44,261 nt of DNA, from sequence record PQ433351.1; one strand, written 5' to 3'. The notes under the pieces are model-generated. The model saw nothing but the letters and a program-made list of their open reading frames with translations, was not told the DNA's origin and searched no databases. The position numbers and the translations under genes were made by a program. The stretch comes from Escherichia phage vB_Ec-G9. Below, piece by piece: positions 10,716-43,495 of the stretch. Within the stretch, counting starts at the first letter, position 1, and every line of letters starts with the position of its first letter.

Positions 10716-11722
10716 TGGGTAAGATTAGAAACTTGTTTACTAATAAGGAGGTAGAAGAAGCAGTTGAAAGTGCAAAGCGCGATGATGGCACTATCAACTA
10801 TCGCCTGATGGCGTCTATTCTCTCAGATAACACACATGGGACTACAGTTACAAGGCAGCTTGCAAAGTATTGGGCCAAACAGTTTGAAAAGCGGAAGAAG
10901 AATGGCGAGGCGTATGAAACCTTGGCTATTGCGAACCGTGCTATCAAAGAAGAACGTAAGCTCAGGACTCCTGACCGCTACGAGGATTTGGCTATTGTAC
11001 CATTGCCTGACTCGCCTCATCGAAGTGTATTGGTAATACCTGACACCCATGCACCTTATGAGCATCCAGATACATTAGAGTTTCTGGCAGCGGTGGCAGC
11101 ACGTTACCGTCCAGACACTGTAATTCATCTTGGTGATGAGGCGGACAAGCACGCACTTTCATTCCATACGTCAGATCCTAATCTGGATTCTGCTGGTATG
11201 GAGTTAGAGAAGGCTCGTATCTTCATGCGTAAATTACATAAGATGTTCCCTGTAATGCGCATCTGCCACTCTAATCATGGCTCCTTACATTTCCGTAAGG
11301 CCAGTGCTCATGGCATCCCTGTGCAATACCTGCGCACCTACCGTGAAGTCTTCTTCCCGCAGGGAGGTGGCGACCAGTGGGATTGGCAGCATACGCACGT
11401 CCTTGAGTTGCCGAATGGTGAACAAGTGGCATTCAAGCATCAACCTGCTGGCTCTGTCCTAGCAGATGCAGCGCATGAGCGTATGAACCTTGTGTGTGGT
11501 CACTTGCACGGTAAGATGTCTGTGGAGTACGCACGTAATACACATGAACAGTATTGGGCTGTGCAAGGTGGCTGCTTAATTGATGAGTCATCCCGTGCAT
11601 TTGCCTATGGGCGTGAGTCTAAATACAAGCCAGCATTAGGTTGTGTGGTTATTCTGGAGGGTGTACCTCATATTGTCCCGATGCAAACCAATAGCGACAA
11701 CCGTTGGATTGGCAAGATTTAG
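10715..11722 (+). CDS. calcineurin-like metallophosphoesterase
   Basis: VIPDTHAPY ... HLGDEADKH ... CGHLHG: DxH / GDxxD / GHxH metallophosphatase motifs. Confidence 0.75.
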   Translation: MGKIRNLFTNKEVEEAVESAKRDDGTINYRLMASILSDNTHGTTVTRQLAKYWAKQFEKRKKNGEAYETLAIANRAIKEERKLRTPDRYEDLAIVPLPDSPHRSVLVIPDTHAPYEHPDTLEFLAAVAARYRPDTVIHLGDEADKHALSFHTSDPNLDSAGMELEKARIFMRKLHKMFPVMRICHSNHGSLHFRKASAHGIPVQYLRTYREVFFPQGGGDQWDWQHTHVLELPNGEQVAFKHQPAGSVLADAAHERMNLVCGHLHGKMSVEYARNTHEQYWAVQGGCLIDESSRAFAYGRESKYKPALGCVVILEGVPHIVPMQTNSDNRWIGKI

Positions 11723-11742
11723 TTGACACTATAGAACAAAGG
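11717..11742 (+). promoter_or_regulatory. phage RNAP promoter (variant -12 to -10 GTT)
   Basis: GATTTAGTTGACACTATAGAACAAAG. Confidence 0.7.
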
Positions 11743-12327: not shown

Positions 12328-13275
12328 ATGAATATCTTTGAGTTCCTAGGTCTTCCAGAAGACCACCGCAATCACCCATTCATGCTGGTGAAGCATCGCG
12401 GTGAAGTTCCTGAGAAGAAATTAACTTTTCCATGTTATGCACAGGTGAAACGAGATGGAATATTCAGTGCTGTTGTGGTGCGCAATGATGGTGCTGTTGC
12501 CATCTTTGGTCGTACTGGTAAGAAGCTCGCAAATGTTGAATCCTTGGAAAAGACATTTAGTTTATTTCCTGTCGGGTTGTATCTTGGTGAGTTGCAATCT
12601 ATGGCTGTTGATGTTTATCTTGAAGCTCTGTCAGGAGTGGTAAACCCTAATCGTACAGAGCCACTTGACTTCATAGGCCAGCAGATTAAAGACAACCTGT
12701 ATATCGACTTCTTCGATATGTTAACTATTAAGGCATTCCATGATGGATTCACTGATGTTTCTTATCTCAAACGTTACGATGCTTTACATCGTCGCATCGG
12801 CGCTCATCTTAGCGGGTACAACGCTATCCTTCCTATTACTCCTTGCCATAATGAGCGAGAAGTTGAAGCGTTTGCGCAAGAGCAGATAGACGCAGGCCGA
12901 GAGGGTGCTGTATTCAAACTGGACTGCGATTATGAAGCAGGCCACAAAGGTTATCGTCAGACTAAAGAAGTCCGTAAGGTAACTTATGACCTTACTTGTA
13001 TTGGCTTTGAAGAAGGTAAAGGTAAGTACAAAGGTAAGGTAGCTAACCTCATTTTCAAATGGAAAGGAGGCAAGACAATCAAAGCTATGTTAGGTAAAGG
13101 GTGGACTCATGCAGATGCAGAACAGATGTTCCACGACATTAAACATGGTGGACGATTGAATGTCATTGGTAAAATCTTTGAAGTCAAAGGTCTTCAGGAT
13201 TCAAGCAAGGGCAACATTCGTCTGCCCAAAGCGGGAGAATTAAGACATGACAAAGATGAACCAGATTTCTTTTGA
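12328..13275 (+). CDS. ATP-dependent DNA ligase
   Basis: Motif I KRDG (AQVKRDGIFS), EGAVFK motif; size and position fit phage ligase. Confidence 0.8.
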   Translation: MNIFEFLGLPEDHRNHPFMLVKHRGEVPEKKLTFPCYAQVKRDGIFSAVVVRNDGAVAIFGRTGKKLANVESLEKTFSLFPVGLYLGELQSMAVDVYLEALSGVVNPNRTEPLDFIGQQIKDNLYIDFFDMLTIKAFHDGFTDVSYLKRYDALHRRIGAHLSGYNAILPITPCHNEREVEAFAQEQIDAGREGAVFKLDCDYEAGHKGYRQTKEVRKVTYDLTCIGFEEGKGKYKGKVANLIFKWKGGKTIKAMLGKGWTHADAEQMFHDIKHGGRLNVIGKIFEVKGLQDSSKGNIRLPKAGELRHDKDEPDFF

Positions 13276-13462
13276 TAGCATGAAGGCAACTCGTGCAGTT
13301 GAGGTAGCAGAAGCTATCTTTGAAACTTTATCCTGTGGCATGGAAGTGCCATATACTTTACTTGCTGATGCAGAAGAACTTGGTCTTTCTGTAGAAGCTA
13401 TCCAAGAGAAGGTTGACGAATTATATGGTACAGACGAAGAAGAAACCGACGATTTCATTTGA
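13247..13462 (+). CDS. small acidic protein (71 aa)
   Basis: RBS GGAGA; acidic C-terminus TDEEETDDFI. Confidence 0.5.
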   Translation: MTKMNQISFDSMKATRAVEVAEAIFETLSCGMEVPYTLLADAEELGLSVEAIQEKVDELYGTDEEETDDFI

Positions 13463-13466
13463 AGGA

Positions 13467-13595
13467 ATGGAGATGCTTGAGATGATTCTCAAGCCTTCTT
13501 CTCCGAAGGTGACTAAGACTCATGAAGAGTTAATCGTTGATGAAGTGAAGCGTTACATCATGGATTGTGTCAGAGCACAACTGGTGGTCCAATGA
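13467..13595 (+). CDS. hypothetical small protein (42 aa)
   Basis: ATG 13467 with GAAGGA upstream; stop overlaps next start. Confidence 0.3.
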   Translation: MEMLEMILKPSSPKVTKTHEELIVDEVKRYIMDCVRAQLVVQ

Positions 13596-14053
13596 TACGT
13601 CCAGCTTCCTTCCTAGATATTCCTGAGATTATAAACCTTGGGAATAAATATGTGGAAGAGGAAGTCAAGGTAGTGGCCCATCACTCAGCCTCATGGAATG
13701 TAGAACAAAGCGCGCATAACCTTTGCGCATCTCTTAGTAGAGAAGATTTATTCCTATGGGTTGCTGTAGATGAAGGGCGGATTGTAGGGTTCCTGTGGGC
13801 TGGCTATCACGAGTTGGGCCCTTGGACACCTGTAAGGGTTGCCTCTGACATTCTCTTTTATATTATACCAGAGAAGCGAGGAACCCTACTTGGTATGCGT
13901 CTCATCAAAGCCCTAAAGCAATGGGCTAGTGATAATGAATGCTCTGAGGTTCGCCTGTCTATCGCCTCTGGTATTAATGAAGAACGTGTCGGACGTATGT
14001 ATAAGCGACTTGGCTTTGAACCGTTTGGCACTGTGTACAACCTGAAGTTCTAA
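13592..14053 (+). CDS. GNAT-family N-acetyltransferase
   Basis: GNAT-like core IVGFLWAG ... EKRGTLLGMRLIKAL ... YKRLGFEPFG. Confidence 0.65.
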   Translation: MIRPASFLDIPEIINLGNKYVEEEVKVVAHHSASWNVEQSAHNLCASLSREDLFLWVAVDEGRIVGFLWAGYHELGPWTPVRVASDILFYIIPEKRGTLLGMRLIKALKQWASDNECSEVRLSIASGINEERVGRMYKRLGFEPFGTVYNLKF

Positions 14054-14062
14054 GGAGATAAT

Positions 14063-14272
14063 ATGGGTGTTGTAAAGAAAGCATTTAAGGCTATCGGTCT
14101 TGCTCAAGATGCACCACGTATTGAAGCCAAAGTCCCAGCACAGCAGCTTGAGCGTAAGCCTGAGACTGAAGCTGAAGATATTCAAATTGGTGCAGGTGGT
14201 GATGATGCGACTGCATCTGCAAAAGGTAAGCGCGGCCTTGTCCGTCCGGTAGCTTCTAGCTTGAAGGTGTAA
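14063..14272 (+). CDS. hypothetical protein (69 aa), possibly virion-associated
   Basis: Strong RBS TAAGGAG; immediately upstream of portal. Confidence 0.5.
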   Translation: MGVVKKAFKAIGLAQDAPRIEAKVPAQQLERKPETEAEDIQIGAGGDDATASAKGKRGLVRPVASSLKV

Positions 14273-14273
14273 T

Positions 14274-15824
14274 ATGAAACAGAGCACAGATTTGGAGTAT
14301 GGAGGTAAGCGGTCTAAGATACCTAAGCTATGGGAGAAGTTCTCCACTAAACGTAGCTCTTTCCTTGATAGGGCGAAGCATTACTCCAAATTAACCTTGC
14401 CCTATCTGATGAATGACAAAGGTGATAACGAGACTTCGCAGAATGGATGGCAAGGTGTAGGTGCTCAGGCAACTAATCATCTAGCCAACAAGCTAGCGCA
14501 AGTACTATTCCCTGCACAGCGTTCCTTCTTCCGTGTAGACTTAACTGCACAAGGTGAGAAGGTTCTTAATCAGCGTGGCCTGAAGAAGACAGAGCTAGCT
14601 ACCATCTTCGCTCAAGTGGAAACACGGGCAATGAAAGAGTTAGAGCAACGTCAATTCCGGCCTGCTGTAGTGGAAGCATTCAAGCATCTTATTGTTGCTG
14701 GTAGCTGTATGCTATACAAGCCGAGCAAAGGTGCAATCAGTGCTATCCCAATGCATCACTATGTAGTTAACCGTGATACCAATGGCGACCTGTTAGACAT
14801 TATCTTACTGCAAGAGAAAGCCTTACGCACCTTTGACCCAGCTACACGTGCTGTAGTAGAGGTTGGCCTGAAAGGTAAGAAGTGCAAGGAAGATGACAGC
14901 GTTAAGCTGTACACACATGCTAAGTATCTTGGTGATGGATTTTGGGAACTCAAGCAATCTGCTGATGATATCCCTGTGGGTAAGGTGAGTAAAATCAAAT
15001 CAGAAAAGCTACCTTTCATCCCATTAACTTGGAAGCGAAGCTATGGTGAGGATTGGGGTCGCCCTCTTGCAGAGGATTACTCCGGTGATTTATTCGTTAT
15101 CCAATTCTTATCTGAAGCGGTTGCCCGTGGTGCTGCGCTGATGGCAGATATCAAGTACCTGATTCGTCCGGGTGCTCAAACTGATGTTGACCACTTTGTT
15201 AACTCTGGCACTGGTGAGGTTGTCACTGGTGTAGAAGAAGACATCCATATTGTACAGTTAGGTAAGTACGCAGACCTCACACCTATTAGCGCGGTTCTAG
15301 AGGTATACACTCGCCGTATCGGTGTTGTCTTCATGATGGAGACAATGACACGCCGTGACGCCGAACGTGTTACTGCTGTAGAAATCCAGCGAGATGCGTT
15401 AGAGATTGAGCAGAACATGGGTGGTGTATACTCCCTCTTTGCTACTACTATGCAATCGCCAGTAGCGATGTGGGGTCTGCTGGAGGCAGGGGAGTCCTTC
15501 ACTAGTGACTTAGTGGACCCTGTGATTATCACAGGTATTGAAGCTTTAGGACGCATGGCTGAGTTGGATAAACTGGCTAACTTTGCTCAGTATATGTCAC
15601 TGCCATTACAATGGCCTGAGCCTGTCCTAGCTGCTGTGAAATGGCCTGACTATATGGATTGGGTGCGTGGTCAAATCTCTGCTGAACTGCCGTTCCTTAA
15701 ATCGGCTGAAGAGATGGCACAAGAACAGGAAGCGCAGATGCAAGCACAGCAAGCACAGATGCTTGAAGAAGGTGTGGCTAAGGCCGTGCCGGGTGTAATT
15801 CAACAAGAACTTAAGGAGGCGTAA
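14274..15824 (+). CDS. portal (head-tail connector) protein
   Basis: Size, position before scaffold/capsid and sequence parallels to T7 gp8 (e.g. WQGVGAQATNHLANKL vs WQAVGARGLNNLASKL). Confidence 0.9.
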   Translation: MKQSTDLEYGGKRSKIPKLWEKFSTKRSSFLDRAKHYSKLTLPYLMNDKGDNETSQNGWQGVGAQATNHLANKLAQVLFPAQRSFFRVDLTAQGEKVLNQRGLKKTELATIFAQVETRAMKELEQRQFRPAVVEAFKHLIVAGSCMLYKPSKGAISAIPMHHYVVNRDTNGDLLDIILLQEKALRTFDPATRAVVEVGLKGKKCKEDDSVKLYTHAKYLGDGFWELKQSADDIPVGKVSKIKSEKLPFIPLTWKRSYGEDWGRPLAEDYSGDLFVIQFLSEAVARGAALMADIKYLIRPGAQTDVDHFVNSGTGEVVTGVEEDIHIVQLGKYADLTPISAVLEVYTRRIGVVFMMETMTRRDAERVTAVEIQRDALEIEQNMGGVYSLFATTMQSPVAMWGLLEAGESFTSDLVDPVIITGIEALGRMAELDKLANFAQYMSLPLQWPEPVLAAVKWPDYMDWVRGQISAELPFLKSAEEMAQEQEAQMQAQQAQMLEEGVAKAVPGVIQQELKEA

Positions 15825-16748: not shown

Positions 16749-16772
16749 TATTTACTGGACACTATAGAAGGG
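16749..16772 (+). promoter_or_regulatory. phage RNAP promoter upstream of capsid gene
   Basis: TATTTACTGGACACTATAGAAGGG. Confidence 0.85.
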
Positions 16773-18031: not shown

Positions 18032-18068
18032 ATGCCCTATCTACCTTGCGTAGGTAGGGTTCTTTTTG
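18032..18068 (+). terminator. intrinsic terminator after capsid gene
   Basis: ATGCCCTATCTACC-TTGCGTA-GGTAGGG followed by TTCTTTTTG. Confidence 0.7.
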
Positions 18069-29324: not shown

Positions 29325-29607
29325 ACATGCAGCTACAGAGGACGAGGTTGGCATTCTGCATGGTGCTATTACCAAAATCTTCAATAAGAAAGCACAGGCA
29401 ATACTGGACACTATAGAAGAAGACCCTGATGCAGCATTACATTTAGTGTCTGGTAAGGATATTGGTGCGATGTGTAAGTGGGTTCTTGATAACGGCATTA
29501 CCGCCACACCTGCTGCACAGCAGGAAGAGTCCAAGTTATCTAAGCGCCTCAAGGCTATCCGAGAGGCATCCAGTGGTAAGATAATTCAATTCACTAAGGA
29601 GGATTGA
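29308..29607 (+). CDS. terminase small subunit (positional call)
   Basis: GTG start with RBS GGAGGGAG; between holin and large terminase as in T7 gene 18. Confidence 0.55.
   Translation: MSVHNKHAATEDEVGILHGAITKIFNKKAQAILDTIEEDPDAALHLVSGKDIGAMCKWVLDNGITATPAAQQEESKLSKRLKAIREASSGKIIQFTKED
29401..29422 (+). promoter_or_regulatory. phage RNAP promoter embedded in small terminase coding region
   Basis: ATACTGGACACTATAGAAGAAG; encodes LDTIEE in frame. Confidence 0.6.
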
Positions 29608-31505
29608 TGGCTAAGGCAAGAGAATCACAAGCGGAGGCTCTTGCCAGATGGGAGATGCTACAGGAGTTACAGCAGACCTTTCCTTACACAGCGGAAGGTT
29701 TGCTTCTCTTTGCAGATACAGTTATCCATAACTTGATTGCAGGCAACCCTCATCTGATTCGTATGCAGGCTGATATCTTGAAGTTCCTATTCTACGGACA
29801 TAAGTATCGCCTCATCGAAGCGCCTCGTGGTATCGCTAAGACAACACTATCAGCAATCTATACGGTATTCCGTATTATCCATGAACCGCATAAGCGTATC
29901 ATGGTTGTATCCCAAAACGCCAAGCGAGCAGAGGAAATCGCAGGTTGGGTAGTTAAAATCTTCCGTGGCCTAGACTTTCTTGAGTTTATGCTACCAGACA
30001 TCTACGCAGGGGACCGTGCATCCGTTAAGGCGTTTGAGATTCATTACACCCTACGTGGTAGTGATAAGTCTCCTTCTGTATCCTGTTACTCAATCGAAGC
30101 AGGTATGCAGGGTGCTCGTGCTGATATTATTCTAGCGGATGACGTAGAGTCGATGCAGAATGCTCGTACGGCAGCGGGCCGTGCCTTGCTTGAGGAACTG
30201 ACTAAGGAGTTTGAATCTATCAACCAGTTTGGGGATATCATTTACCTTGGTACACCTCAGAACGTAAACTCTATCTACAACAACCTACCTGCTCGTGGTT
30301 ACTCTGTTCGTATCTGGACTGCGCGTTACCCTTCAGTAGAGCAAGAGCAATGTTATGGCGACTTCCTTGCACCTATGATTGTTCAAGATATGAAGGACAA
30401 CCCAGCACTTCGCTCAGGGTACGGGTTGGATGGTAATAGTGGTGCACCTTGTGCCCCTGAAATGTATGATGATGAAGTCCTGATTGAGAAGGAAATCTCT
30501 CAGGGTGCTGCTAAGTTCCAGCTTCAGTTCATGCTTAACACTCGCATGATGGATGCTGACAGATACCCATTACGCCTGAACAATCTAATCTTCACCTCGT
30601 TTGGTACAGAGGAAGTCCCTGTGATGCCTACGTGGAGTAATGATTCCATAAACATCATTGGTGATGCACCTAAGTATGGTAACAAGCCTACGGATTTCAT
30701 GTACAGACCTGTAGCTCGCCCATACGAATGGGGTGCTGTCTCCCGCAAGATTATGTATATTGACCCTGCGGGTGGTGGTAAGAACGGAGATGAGACGGGT
30801 GTAGCCATCGTATTCCTGCACGGCACATTCATTTATGTGTATCAGTGCTTTGGTGTACCTGGTGGATACCGAGAGTCGTCCCTGAATCGCATTGTGCAGG
30901 CCGCAAAGCAGGCGGGTGTTAAAGAGGTATTCATTGAGAAGAACTTTGGTCATGGCGCGTTTGAGGCGGTAATTAAGCCGTACTTTGAACGAGAGTGGCC
31001 TGTAACTCTGGAAGAGGATTACGCCACCGGACAGAAAGAGTTGCGTATCATTGAGACGCTGGAGCCGCTCATGGCAGCCCATAGGCTTATCTTCAATGCA
31101 GAGATGGTGAAGTCAGACTTCGAGTCGGTACAGCACTATCCGCTTGAACTACGCATGTCCTACAGTCTTTTCAATCAAATGTCGAACATAACGATTGAGA
31201 AGAACAGCCTCCGGCACGATGACCGCCTAGACGCCCTGTATGGCGCTATACGGCAATTAACTTCTCAGATAGACTATGACGAGGTTACACGGATTAATCG
31301 CCTCAGAGCGCAGGAGATGCGCGATTACATCCATGCTATGAACACACCTCATCTACGCAGGGCAATGCTATATGGAGATTACGGTACTGAGCGAAGAGTG
31401 ACCAACACTTCCGTAGCGATGCAGCAGCGAGTTTACGGGCAGAACTACCGAAATAAATCGGCAAGCAGAAATACACTTTCTGCAAGGATTTCAAGGACTT
31501 ATTAA
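29607..31505 (+). CDS. terminase large subunit
   Basis: ATPase motif region GHKYRLIEAPRGIAKTT; size about 630 aa; position. Confidence 0.9.
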   Translation: MAKARESQAEALARWEMLQELQQTFPYTAEGLLLFADTVIHNLIAGNPHLIRMQADILKFLFYGHKYRLIEAPRGIAKTTLSAIYTVFRIIHEPHKRIMVVSQNAKRAEEIAGWVVKIFRGLDFLEFMLPDIYAGDRASVKAFEIHYTLRGSDKSPSVSCYSIEAGMQGARADIILADDVESMQNARTAAGRALLEELTKEFESINQFGDIIYLGTPQNVNSIYNNLPARGYSVRIWTARYPSVEQEQCYGDFLAPMIVQDMKDNPALRSGYGLDGNSGAPCAPEMYDDEVLIEKEISQGAAKFQLQFMLNTRMMDADRYPLRLNNLIFTSFGTEEVPVMPTWSNDSINIIGDAPKYGNKPTDFMYRPVARPYEWGAVSRKIMYIDPAGGGKNGDETGVAIVFLHGTFIYVYQCFGVPGGYRESSLNRIVQAAKQAGVKEVFIEKNFGHGAFEAVIKPYFEREWPVTLEEDYATGQKELRIIETLEPLMAAHRLIFNAEMVKSDFESVQHYPLELRMSYSLFNQMSNITIEKNSLRHDDRLDALYGAIRQLTSQIDYDEVTRINRLRAQEMRDYIHAMNTPHLRRAMLYGDYGTERRVTNTSVAMQQRVYGQNYRNKSASRNTLSARISRTY

Positions 31506-40753: not shown

Positions 40754-43381
40754 ATGCAAGACTTACACGCTATTCAACTTCAACTTGAAGAAGAAATGTT
40801 TAACGGCGGTATCCGTCGCTTTGAAGCGGACCAACAGCGCCAGATTGCATCCGGTAATGAATCAGACACGGCATGGAATCGCCGCTTATTGTCCGAGTTA
40901 ATTGCGCCAATGGCTGAAGGTATTCAGGCATACAAGGAAGAGTATGAAGGTAAAAGAGGCCGTGCACCGCGTGCATTAGCTTTCATTAACTGCGTAGAAA
41001 ATGAAGTGGCAGCGTATATCACGATGAAAATCGTTATGGATATGCTGAACACGGATGTAACCTTGCAGGCTATAGCCATGAATGTAGCTGACCGCATTGA
41101 GGACCAAGTACGTTTTAGCAAGCTGGAAGGTCACGCCGCCAAATACTTTGAGAAAGTTAAGAAGTCACTTAAGGCAAGTAAGACTAAATCATATCGCCAT
41201 GCGCACAACGTAGCGGTCGTGGCTGAGAAGTCAGTAGCTGACCGTGACGCTGATTTCTCTCGCTGGGAGGCGTGGCCTAAAGATACCTTGCTACAAATCG
41301 GTATGACCTTGCTAGAAATACTGGAAAATAGTGTATTCTTCAATGGTCAGCCTGTCTTTCTTCGCACCTTGCGCACTAATGGTGGCAAGCATGGCGTTTA
41401 CTACTTACAGACTAGCGAACACGTAGGTGAATGGATAACTGCATTTAAAGAGCACGTAGCTCAGCTGAGTCCAGCCTATGCACCTTGCGTTATTCCTCCG
41501 CGTCCGTGGGTTTCTCCGTTTAATGGTGGCTTTCACACCGAGAAGGTGGCGAGTCGTATTCGTCTGGTTAAAGGAAACCGCGAGCACGTCCGCAAGCTGA
41601 CCAAAAAGCAAATGCCAGCGGTTTACAAGGCTGTTAACGCTTTGCAGGCGACTAAGTGGCAGGTTAATAAAGAGGTTTTGCAGGTAGTAGAGGACGTTAT
41701 CCGTCTCGACCTTGGTTATGGTGTGCCTTCCTTTAAACCACTCATCGACCGTGAGAACAAGCCAGCTAATCCAGTGCCGTTAGAGTTCCAGCACCTGCGA
41801 GGCCGTGAACTTAAAGAGATGCTAACGCCAGAACAGTGGCAAGCTTTTATAAACTGGAAAGGAGAATGTACCAAGCTGTATACCGCTGAAACTAAGCGCG
41901 GAAGCAAGTCGGCGGCGACCGTTCGCATGGTAGGACAAGCGCGCAAGTACAGCCAGTTCGACGCGATTTATTTCGTGTATGCACTGGATAGCCGTTCACG
42001 CGTTTATGCGCAATCTAGCACGCTCTCTCCGCAATCAAACGACTTAGGCAAGGCATTGCTCCGTTTTACCGAAGGGCAGCGTCTTGATAGCGCTGAGGCG
42101 CTTAAGTGGTTTTTGGTGAACGGGGCGAATAACTGGGGTTGGGATAAGAAAACTTTTGACGTGCGCACCGCTAACGTGCTGGATAGCGAATTTCAAGACA
42201 TGTGCCGCGACATTGCAGCCGACCCGCTGACCTTCACTCAATGGGTAAATGCTGATTCCCCTTACGGCTTCCTTGCATGGTGCTTTGAATATGCGCGTTA
42301 TCTGGATGCACTGGATGAAGGCACGCAAGACCAATTCATGACGCACCTACCCGTCCATCAAGACGGTAGTTGCTCTGGTATCCAGCACTATAGCGCGATG
42401 TTACGCGATGAAGTAGGTGCGAAAGCAGTAAACCTTAAGCCTTCTGACTCCCCTCAAGATATTTATGGCGCGGTTGCGCAGGTTGTTATCCAGAAGAATT
42501 ACGCCTACATGAATGCAGATGATGCAGAGACTTTCACATCTGGAAGCGTCACACTTACAGGTGCAGAACTGCGTAGCATGGCTAGTGCGTGGGATATGAT
42601 AGGAATCACTCGCGGCCTGACCAAAAAGCCCGTAATGACACTACCTTATGGCAGCACACGTCTAACCTGCCGTGAATCAGTGATTGATTATATCGTTGAT
42701 TTGGAAGAAAAAGAGGCCCAACGAGCTATTGCCGAAGGGCGGACGGCGAATCCCGTGCACCCTTTTGATAATGACCGCAAAGACTACCTTACACCTGGTG
42801 CAGCCTACAACTATATGACGGCTTTAATTTGGCCTTCTATCTCTGAGGTTGTTAAAGCTCCTATAGTGGCGATGAAGATGATTCGCCAGCTTGCACGTTT
42901 CGCAGCTAAAAGGAATGAAGGGTTAGAATACACCTTGCCAACTGGCTTCATCTTGCAACAAAAGATAATGGCTACCGATATGCTCCGTGTATCCACTTGC
43001 TTGATGGGTGAAATCAAGATGAGTCTACAGATTGAAACTGATGTAGTGGATGAAACGGCAATGATGGGCGCTGCCGCTCCTAACTTTGTTCACGGGCACG
43101 ATGCTAGTCACCTTATATTAACGGTATGTGACCTTGTTGATAAAGGGATTACATCTATCGCAGTAATTCATGATTCTTTTGGCACTCATGCAGGCCGTAC
43201 AGCCGATCTACGCAACAGCTTAAGGGCAGAAATGGTGAAGATGTATCAAGGCCGTAATGCACTGCAAAGCCTGCTAGATGAGCACGAAGAACGCTGGTTA
43301 GTTGATACAGGAATCCAAGTACCAGAGCAAGGAGAGTTTGACCTTAACGAAATCTTAGTATCTGACTATTGCTTCGCATAA
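40754..43381 (+). CDS. single-subunit DNA-dependent RNA polymerase (T7/SP6 type)
   Basis: [39 protein letters not shown] and C-terminal SDYCFA match T7 RNAP catalytic and C-terminal motifs; 875 aa. Confidence 0.95.
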
Positions 43382-43470: not shown

Positions 43471-43495
43471 TTATTTACCGGACACTATAGGATAG
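43471..43495 (+). promoter_or_regulatory. phage RNAP promoter
   Basis: TTATTTACCGGACACTATAGGATAG. Confidence 0.7.

Follow-up and report, generated by a model that had tools for sequence, protein, structure and literature searches.

Gene 27 of Escherichia phage vB_Ec-G9 encodes a conserved GNAT protein in the genomic slot of Rac and the T7 gene 7 protein

Introduction

For proteins encoded just upstream of the portal region in Autographiviridae, the only experimental anchor for a mechanism is Rac (PMC7552054). Rac (Gp28 of LUZ19/phiKMV; PHROG 3986) is a GNAT-superfamily protein of ~155 amino acids (aa). It triggers cleavage of the alpha subunit of the host RNA polymerase, and residues of its acetyl-coenzyme A (acetyl-CoA) pocket are needed for this effect; the cleavage itself has been ascribed to host proteases (PMC7552054). 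Here, we describe gene 27 of Escherichia phage vB_Ec-G9, which encodes a GNAT protein in the same genomic slot and which we tentatively propose to act on a protein during infection. The whole 44,261-nt stretch of sequence record PQ433351.1 is hereafter called “the window”.

The slot is found in several subfamilies. In LUZ19 (Krylovirinae), a small gp27 precedes the GNAT protein gp28 (Rac), which is followed by the small virion protein gp29, portal, scaffold and capsid. The T7-like Pseudomonas phage 17A (Ghunavirus, Studiervirinae) has gp6.5 and gp6.7 ahead of a 147-aa Rac-like GNAT protein, with gp7.3 and portal after it. In T7, the slot holds the “host range” protein of gene 7 (PHROG 2746), which carries the RefSeq label “host range and adsorption protein”. 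The slot-7 protein was absent from the proteins that mass spectrometry detected in phiPsa17 virions, which included gp6.7, gp7.3, gp8 and gp9-12 (PMC4517105); this argues that slot-7 proteins are non-structural.

Gene 27 itself is not new: reference genomes carry it as an annotated gene, and its place is conserved. Gene 27 of phage K1E (YP_425004.1) is the same gene, with a product of the same length and 95% aa identity that differs by only a few substitutions and is annotated “acetyltransferase” in RefSeq. Gene 27 of K1-5 (YP_654128.1) is likewise its equivalent, as is an SP6 gene whose product is 75% identical (Gp28 in the numbering of PMC4837284). The neighbors, too, are common to the window and to the K1E/K1-5/SP6-type loci: ligase, 25, 26, GNAT, 28 and portal.

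Results

Gene 27 encodes a complete GNAT protein under purifying selection

13592-14053, + strand: gene 27, an ATG-to-TAA open reading frame (ORF) of 153 codons; canonical GNAT N-acetyltransferase

Gene 27 is a real gene under strong purifying selection, since the ratio of nonsynonymous to synonymous substitution rates (dN/dS) against its relatives is 0.06-0.10 (Nei-Gojobori; comparisons with unsaturated dS). Its ATG overlaps the TGA of the 60-aa gene 26 (ATGA), and a GGTGG element lies ~6 nt 5ʹ of the ATG. There is a longer alternative start, TTG at 13565; nonetheless, 13592 is the likely start, because 24 of the 28 aligned homologues begin with MIR(P/Q)A. Two antisense ORFs, at 13913-14347 (- strand, 144 aa) and 13858-14040 (- strand, 60 aa), overlap genes 27 and 28. 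Both are most likely spurious, given that all confirmed genes of the genome are on the + strand.

The product, gp27, is a minimal protein of 153 aa with no extra domain. It scores 38.8 bits against Pfam Acetyltransf_1 (PF00583), for which the gathering cut-off is 20.7, and likewise passes the thresholds of Acetyltransf_7 and Acetyltransf_10. It also matches PHROG 1249 over its full length (E 5.5e-53 across residues 1-151). The structural model has the mixed alpha/beta fold of a GNAT protein, in the order b1-a1-a2-b2-b3-b4-a3-b5-a4-b6-b7. An earlier, sequence-only reading of this DNA had proposed a GNAT acetyltransferase at 13592-14053; Pfam, PHROG 1249, the fold and conserved CoA-binding motifs confirm it. 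When we looked for the acetyl-CoA-binding fold on which that reading hung, the predicted GNAT fold was present in the model.

We searched for motif A as R/Q-x-x-G-x-G/A after beta4, and for motif B on alpha4. Both have counterparts in gp27:

13865-13894, + strand: motif A region, IPEKRGTLLG, residues 92-101, in the beta4-alpha3 loop as placed by the secondary structure of the model
13976-14017, + strand: motif B region, NEERVGRMYKRLGF, residues 129-142, on alpha4, with Y137 at the usual general-acid position and with G141

Motif A reads R96-G97-T-L-L-G101, a variant whose spacing differs from the searched pattern. From what is generally known of GNAT enzymes, this loop is predicted to bind the pyrophosphate of CoA. 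Motif B reads N129...Y137...G141-F142; this segment is missing from the Rac and T7 gp7 families. By the same general knowledge, the retention of motifs A and B argues that gp27 binds acetyl-CoA.

We assessed conservation in 145 representatives of the gene 27 family, which have a median of 30% identity to the window protein:

R3: 93% conserved
D9: 96% conserved
E23: 89% conserved
G66: 97% conserved
D86: 90%, D or E
Y90: 99%, Y or F
R96: 98% conserved
G97: 88% conserved
W111: 96% conserved
Y137, the usual general-acid position: 73%, the remainder F or L
G141: 97% conserved
G146: 92% conserved

The acidic residues E23 and D86 could act as general base or bind an amine, and their conservation fits an amine acceptor, as judged from GNAT enzymes in general. 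We conclude that gp27 is probably a small but complete acetyl-CoA-dependent N-acetyltransferase that is catalytically active.

The position of gene 27 is the rule in its lineage

The window is a Vectrevirus genome of the K1E/K1-5-like SP6 group (Autographiviridae, Molineuxvirinae), and many Escherichia K1 phages of this genus match the 3.6 kb around gene 27 at 97-99% identity. The genome is complete and circularly permuted; the window begins in the primase/helicase gene and has the RNA polymerase ORF at 40754-43381.

K1E and K1-5 share the order ligase, small ORF, small ORF, GNAT, small ORF, portal, scaffold, capsid with Colwellvirinae (Vibrio phage phi-A318 and Pseudomonas phage uligo). In IMG/VR loci that encode a GNAT protein at least 37% identical to gp27, the portal gene starts 220-250 bp 3ʹ of the GNAT gene in 31 of 31 cases, and all 31 have the order small ORF, GNAT, gp7.3-like small ORF, portal. 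Hence, the position of gene 27, which is kept in hundreds of related phages, is the rule for its lineage and not an oddity. The sequence-only reading had considered the position unusual, a reason for interest that fails for a gene annotated in reference genomes and conserved in place. It had also placed the gene just upstream of the portal gene; the portal gene is indeed downstream, but it does not adjoin gene 27, since a 69-aa gene (14063-14272) lies between them.

Relatives of gene 27 were found by tblastn in 230 phage records, with hosts that include Escherichia, Salmonella, Klebsiella, Proteus, Erwinia, Pectobacterium, Vibrio, Pseudomonas syringae and Marinomonas. These records also include remote relatives, with 23-28% identity, in Roseobacter phage SIO1 and in Lentibacter and Acinetobacter phages. 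Remote relatives with 24-31% identity (SIO1 and loci L045, L048, L040 and L055) have other places inside morphogenesis modules. In the SIO1-like phages (SIO1, L045 and L048), the GNAT gene has a gene for a tail-tube-like protein (PHROG 376) on one side and one for an internal virion protein (PHROG 418) on the other. The L055 gene is flanked by large terminase and portal, and the L040 gene is followed by a small ORF and then portal. The cluster names of distant representatives say only “GNAT superfamily N-acetyltransferase”. A search of 185,579 bacterial and archaeal species genomes (one each) with one family-specific peptide pattern, which covers close relatives only, found no relative of gene 27. 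Four remote representatives (P0063, P0068, P0075 and P0093) are 318-385 aa long and match over two stretches, a pattern suggestive of tandem or fused GNAT domains; P0093 is cellular, because it is found on contigs of up to 2.3 Mb.

Within the closest group, the K1-5 copy differs in length, at 175 aa rather than 153 (NC_008152 19630-20157; locus L060:1331-1858). An in-frame insertion of 22 aa, a partial duplication of HHSASWNAEQSA, is found in the alpha1-alpha2 loop of K1-5 gp27 and is missing from the window. This loop is in a region that usually lines the acceptor site.

A separate 95-aa protein encoded after the terminase gene of the SP6-like phage UAB_Phi78, a homologue of K1E gp42, has been labeled “putative Acetyl-CoA acetyltransferase” (PMC4837284). 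Its counterpart in the window would be downstream of the terminase gene at 29604-31505.

Gene 27, Rac and T7 gene 7 share a slot

Gene 27 shares the location of Rac, being directly 5ʹ of a gene for a small virion protein that is followed by portal. A comparison of wide profiles for the window family and the Rac family gave a probability of 95.7% (E 8.5e-9) over 113 columns that run from b1 to b5, the GNAT core. The homology is significant only with wide profiles on both sides; it was not significant with a narrow profile, and BLASTP gave no alignment between window gp27 and Rac. PHROG 1249 is the only non-self PHROG match of Rac, and the PHROG of each family is among the few weak matches of the other. 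On a hidden Markov model (HMM) of the Rac family, window gp27 scores 13.7 bits, a value reached by 0 of 3000 shuffled sequences. The Rac family ends in a C-terminal HRxGEGRYxIxY hairpin that gp27 does not have.

The T7 gene 7 protein occupies the same slot and is modeled with a GNAT fold. It is 133 aa long, is without alpha4 and motif B, and gives no GNAT match in Pfam; it may be a pseudoenzyme. By sequence, it is linked to the Rac family (BLASTP 1e-3 against the phage 17A protein; 10.8 bits on the Rac HMM, with 0 of 3000 shuffles reaching this score), while its similarity to the window family is not significant. We therefore link T7 gp7 to the window family through the fold, the genomic position and the Rac family as intermediate. 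The PhageMaP preprint contains nothing on T7 gene 7. Across Autographiviridae, then, a conserved “gene 7 slot”, 5ʹ of a gp7.3-like gene and portal, holds a GNAT-fold protein.

Neighboring genes and transcription

Gene 27 is flanked by small genes and lies in a unit headed by an SP6-type promoter:

11717-11737, + strand: nearest upstream SP6-type promoter, ATTTAGTTGACACTATAGAAC, with 2 mismatches to the SP6 promoter; heads genes 23-30
13247-13462, + strand: gene 25, small ORF; PHROG 5860 at 2.4e-41; annotated as gene 25 in K1E and K1-5
13413-13595, + strand: gene 26, 60-aa ORF; PHROG 6507 (function not assigned) at 2.7e-37
14063-14272, + strand: gene 28, 69 aa, between GNAT and portal; T7 gp7.3 class (virion assembly/adsorption protein)
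14274-15824, + strand: gene 29, portal (head-tail connector); Pfam PF12236 at 7.7e-88

The ATGA overlap of genes 26 and 27 suggests translational coupling, and the same stop/start overlap is found in phi-A318, uligo and 17A. Gene 26 has no DUF1778 or antitoxin match in Pfam. The product of gene 28 matches PHROG 9033 (1.1e-12) and PHROG 1320 (1.9e-11). T7 gp7.3 (9.7e-30) and the gp7.3 homologue of phage 17A (1e-26) both belong to PHROG 1320, although pairwise BLASTP gave no significant match between window gp28 and T7 gp7.3. A Shine-Dalgarno sequence, AAGGAG, lies directly 5ʹ of the gene 28 ATG.

Perfect GACACTATAGAA cores are found on the + strand at 1944, 2792, 6538, 7001, 8144, 11725, 16758, 29407, 31512 and 33177, and a further SP6-type core with one mismatch is at 43481. 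In the unit that starts at 11725, gene 23, ligase and genes 25 and 26 come before GNAT, and gene 28, portal and scaffold after it. The capsid gene is preceded by the next promoter, at 16758, and followed by a strong terminator-like hairpin (18034-18060). From these promoter positions, gp27 would be made by the phage RNA polymerase along with late replication genes and the first assembly genes.

Another terminator-like hairpin lies within gene 26 (13475-13494, + strand; GCTTGAGATGATTCTCAAGC, followed by a pyrimidine-rich tail), with -17.6 kcal/mol and a z of -2.8 when folded with its flanks. It is conserved in Vectrevirus and broken in SP6 and Klebsiella relatives, and is thus probably incidental to the coding sequence. 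We do not count it as a regulatory element: it is moderately stable, but it is not conserved outside Vectrevirus.

Discussion

What does a GNAT protein do in this position? We suggest, tentatively and at somewhat less than even confidence, that gp27 is an active, non-packaged N-acetyltransferase that modifies a host or phage protein at the transition from replication to assembly. Gene 27 would be transcribed by the phage RNA polymerase from the promoter at 11725 together with ligase, genes 25-26, the gp7.3-like gene, portal and scaffold, such that gp27 would be made as the phage switches from replication to assembly. By analogy, the enzyme would then acetylate an amine on a protein, which could be a host takeover factor or a phage ejection or virion protein. 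Acetylation of a protein amine is the most likely activity in our view because of the slot position and the analogy with Rac. Cleavage of the alpha subunit as with Rac would be a minority case within this proposal, and we consider it improbable. A precedent for a small GNAT protein with one specific host protein as its target is AcrVA5, which is encoded on a mobile element and acetylates Lys635 of Cas12a (cited in PMC7552054). The genomic context of AcrVA5 differs from that of gene 27; the likeness is one of analogy only.

Several observations weigh against acetylation of a protein at this stage. We found no experiment on the gene 27 family (K1E, K1-5 or SP6) in the searchable literature, and the timing of gene 27 expression is deduced from promoter positions only. 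By sequence, the solved structures closest to gp27 are those of small-amine acetyltransferases (DpA, SSAT2, AAC(6') and PAT), all of them weak matches, and only 73% of the wide family retains the canonical tyrosine general acid, Y137. The analogy with Rac also has limits. Rac is ~14% identical to window gp27 and belongs to a different PHROG; window gp27 matches PHROG 3986 with an E value of only 0.18, which leaves it outside the Rac family; and the Rac family lacks alpha4 and motif B, both of which are canonical in gp27. Moreover, the alpha-cleavage phenotype is genus-specific even within Krylovirinae, as the GNAT protein of LKA1, encoded at the same position, has no such effect (PMC7552054).

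The structural matches raise the question of whether the substrate might be a small molecule. In this case, gp27 would acetylate a small amine late in infection, such as a polyamine, an aminoglycoside-like or amino-acid-analogue toxin, or another metabolite; for example, it might adjust polyamine pools during DNA packaging or detoxify an inhibitory compound. The best PDB sequence-profile matches of gp27 are the polyamine acetyltransferase DpA (4.9e-5), SSAT2/thialysine acetyltransferase, AAC(6'), phosphinothricin/ArsN acetyltransferases and YpeA, and NCBIfam gives weak matches to ArsN1, AAC(6') and a generic GNAT model. The conserved E23 and D86 would suit a cationic amine, and the minimal single-domain architecture fits as well. 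However, these nearest-neighbor matches are weak: DpA (Acinetobacter; PDB 8a9o/8a9n) is 15-19% identical to gp27, with a score indistinguishable from those of dozens of other GNAT proteins. The sequence-only reading had proposed comparison with GNAT subfamilies, and this comparison led to the superfamily but to no subfamily. Assignment by sequence failed throughout, with NCBIfam scores far under the cut-offs (22.9 bits against 140 for the AAC(6') group E equivalog, 25.9 against 170 for the ArsN1a equivalog and 22.1 against 86.4 for the RimI equivalog), PDB profiles of at most 26 bits, and no match for gp27 in PADLOC. We regard a small-amine substrate as a rather unlikely alternative. The place of the gene among morphogenesis genes suggests another, a virion-maturation enzyme that would acetylate the gp7.3-like gp28, portal or internal virion proteins at assembly and so tune infectivity or host range. 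This alternative overlaps with the protein acetylation that we favor. The family persists inside morphogenesis modules of differing gene order (Autographiviridae, L055 and SIO1-like phages); T7 gene 7, in the same slot and with a GNAT-fold model, bears the “host range and adsorption” label; and the absence of the slot-7 protein from phiPsa17 virions is what would be expected of an unpackaged enzyme that acts on them. On the other hand, we found no report of a phage-encoded GNAT protein that modifies virion proteins, the targets of Rac are in the host, and linkage to late genes may simply reflect a need for late expression. T7 gp7, like Rac, lacks alpha4 and motif B, and so may be no enzyme. 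On balance, we think that a role in virion maturation is unlikely.

A broader version of this idea, which we consider more doubtful still, is that gp27 is the intact, canonical form of an ancestral Autographiviridae slot-7 GNAT protein, of which Rac and T7 gp7 are reduced forms that have lost alpha4. As its conserved function, gp27 would acetylate ejection or virion proteins of the phage (e.g. the gp7.3-like protein), or their targets in the host envelope, at assembly, and would thereby set particle infectivity and host range. If true, gp27 would be the first acetyltransferase encoded by a phage to serve virion maturation, which would account for the long-standing “host range” phenotype of T7 gene 7.

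Two further functions can be largely set aside. The sequence-only reading had suggested that the protein might act on tRNA as GNAT toxins do; gp27 would then be an enzyme of the TacT/AtaT/ItaT type that acetylates aminoacyl-tRNA and arrests host translation. As a small stand-alone GNAT protein whose start overlaps a small upstream ORF, gp27 bears a superficial resemblance to the toxin of a toxin-antitoxin pair. Nevertheless, no ribbon-helix-helix (RHH) or DUF1778 antitoxin is encoded beside gene 27, since the flanking ORFs have no Pfam match of this kind and belong to PHROG 6507 and to the gp7.3-like PHROGs 9033 and 1320. In addition, gp27 is acidic (whole-protein isoelectric point 6.1, net charge -2), which would argue against a basic tRNA-binding surface; PADLOC, as noted, returned nothing; and we found no specific likeness in sequence or structure to the solved TacT, AtaT, ItaT and KacT toxins. 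We consider a toxin very improbable. We also rejected, by reasoning, O-acetylation of the K1 capsule, because phages of Salmonella, Klebsiella, Proteus, Vibrio and Pseudomonas conserve the gene to the same degree. NeuO, the known O-acetyltransferase of K1, belongs to the hexapeptide-repeat enzymes and not to the GNAT proteins.

The recognition that T7 gp7 is modeled with a GNAT fold, and that the slot is common to several subfamilies, is a by-product of our analysis that lies outside the finding on gene 27 itself. Gene 27 is core-like in SP6-like phages, a group with many members in use as K1-capsule and therapeutic phages. Rac, the only slot occupant characterized so far, brought to light a new way of shutting off host transcription. 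Together, SP6 gp27, Rac and T7 gp7 provide a single comparative frame for action on the host versus action on the virion.
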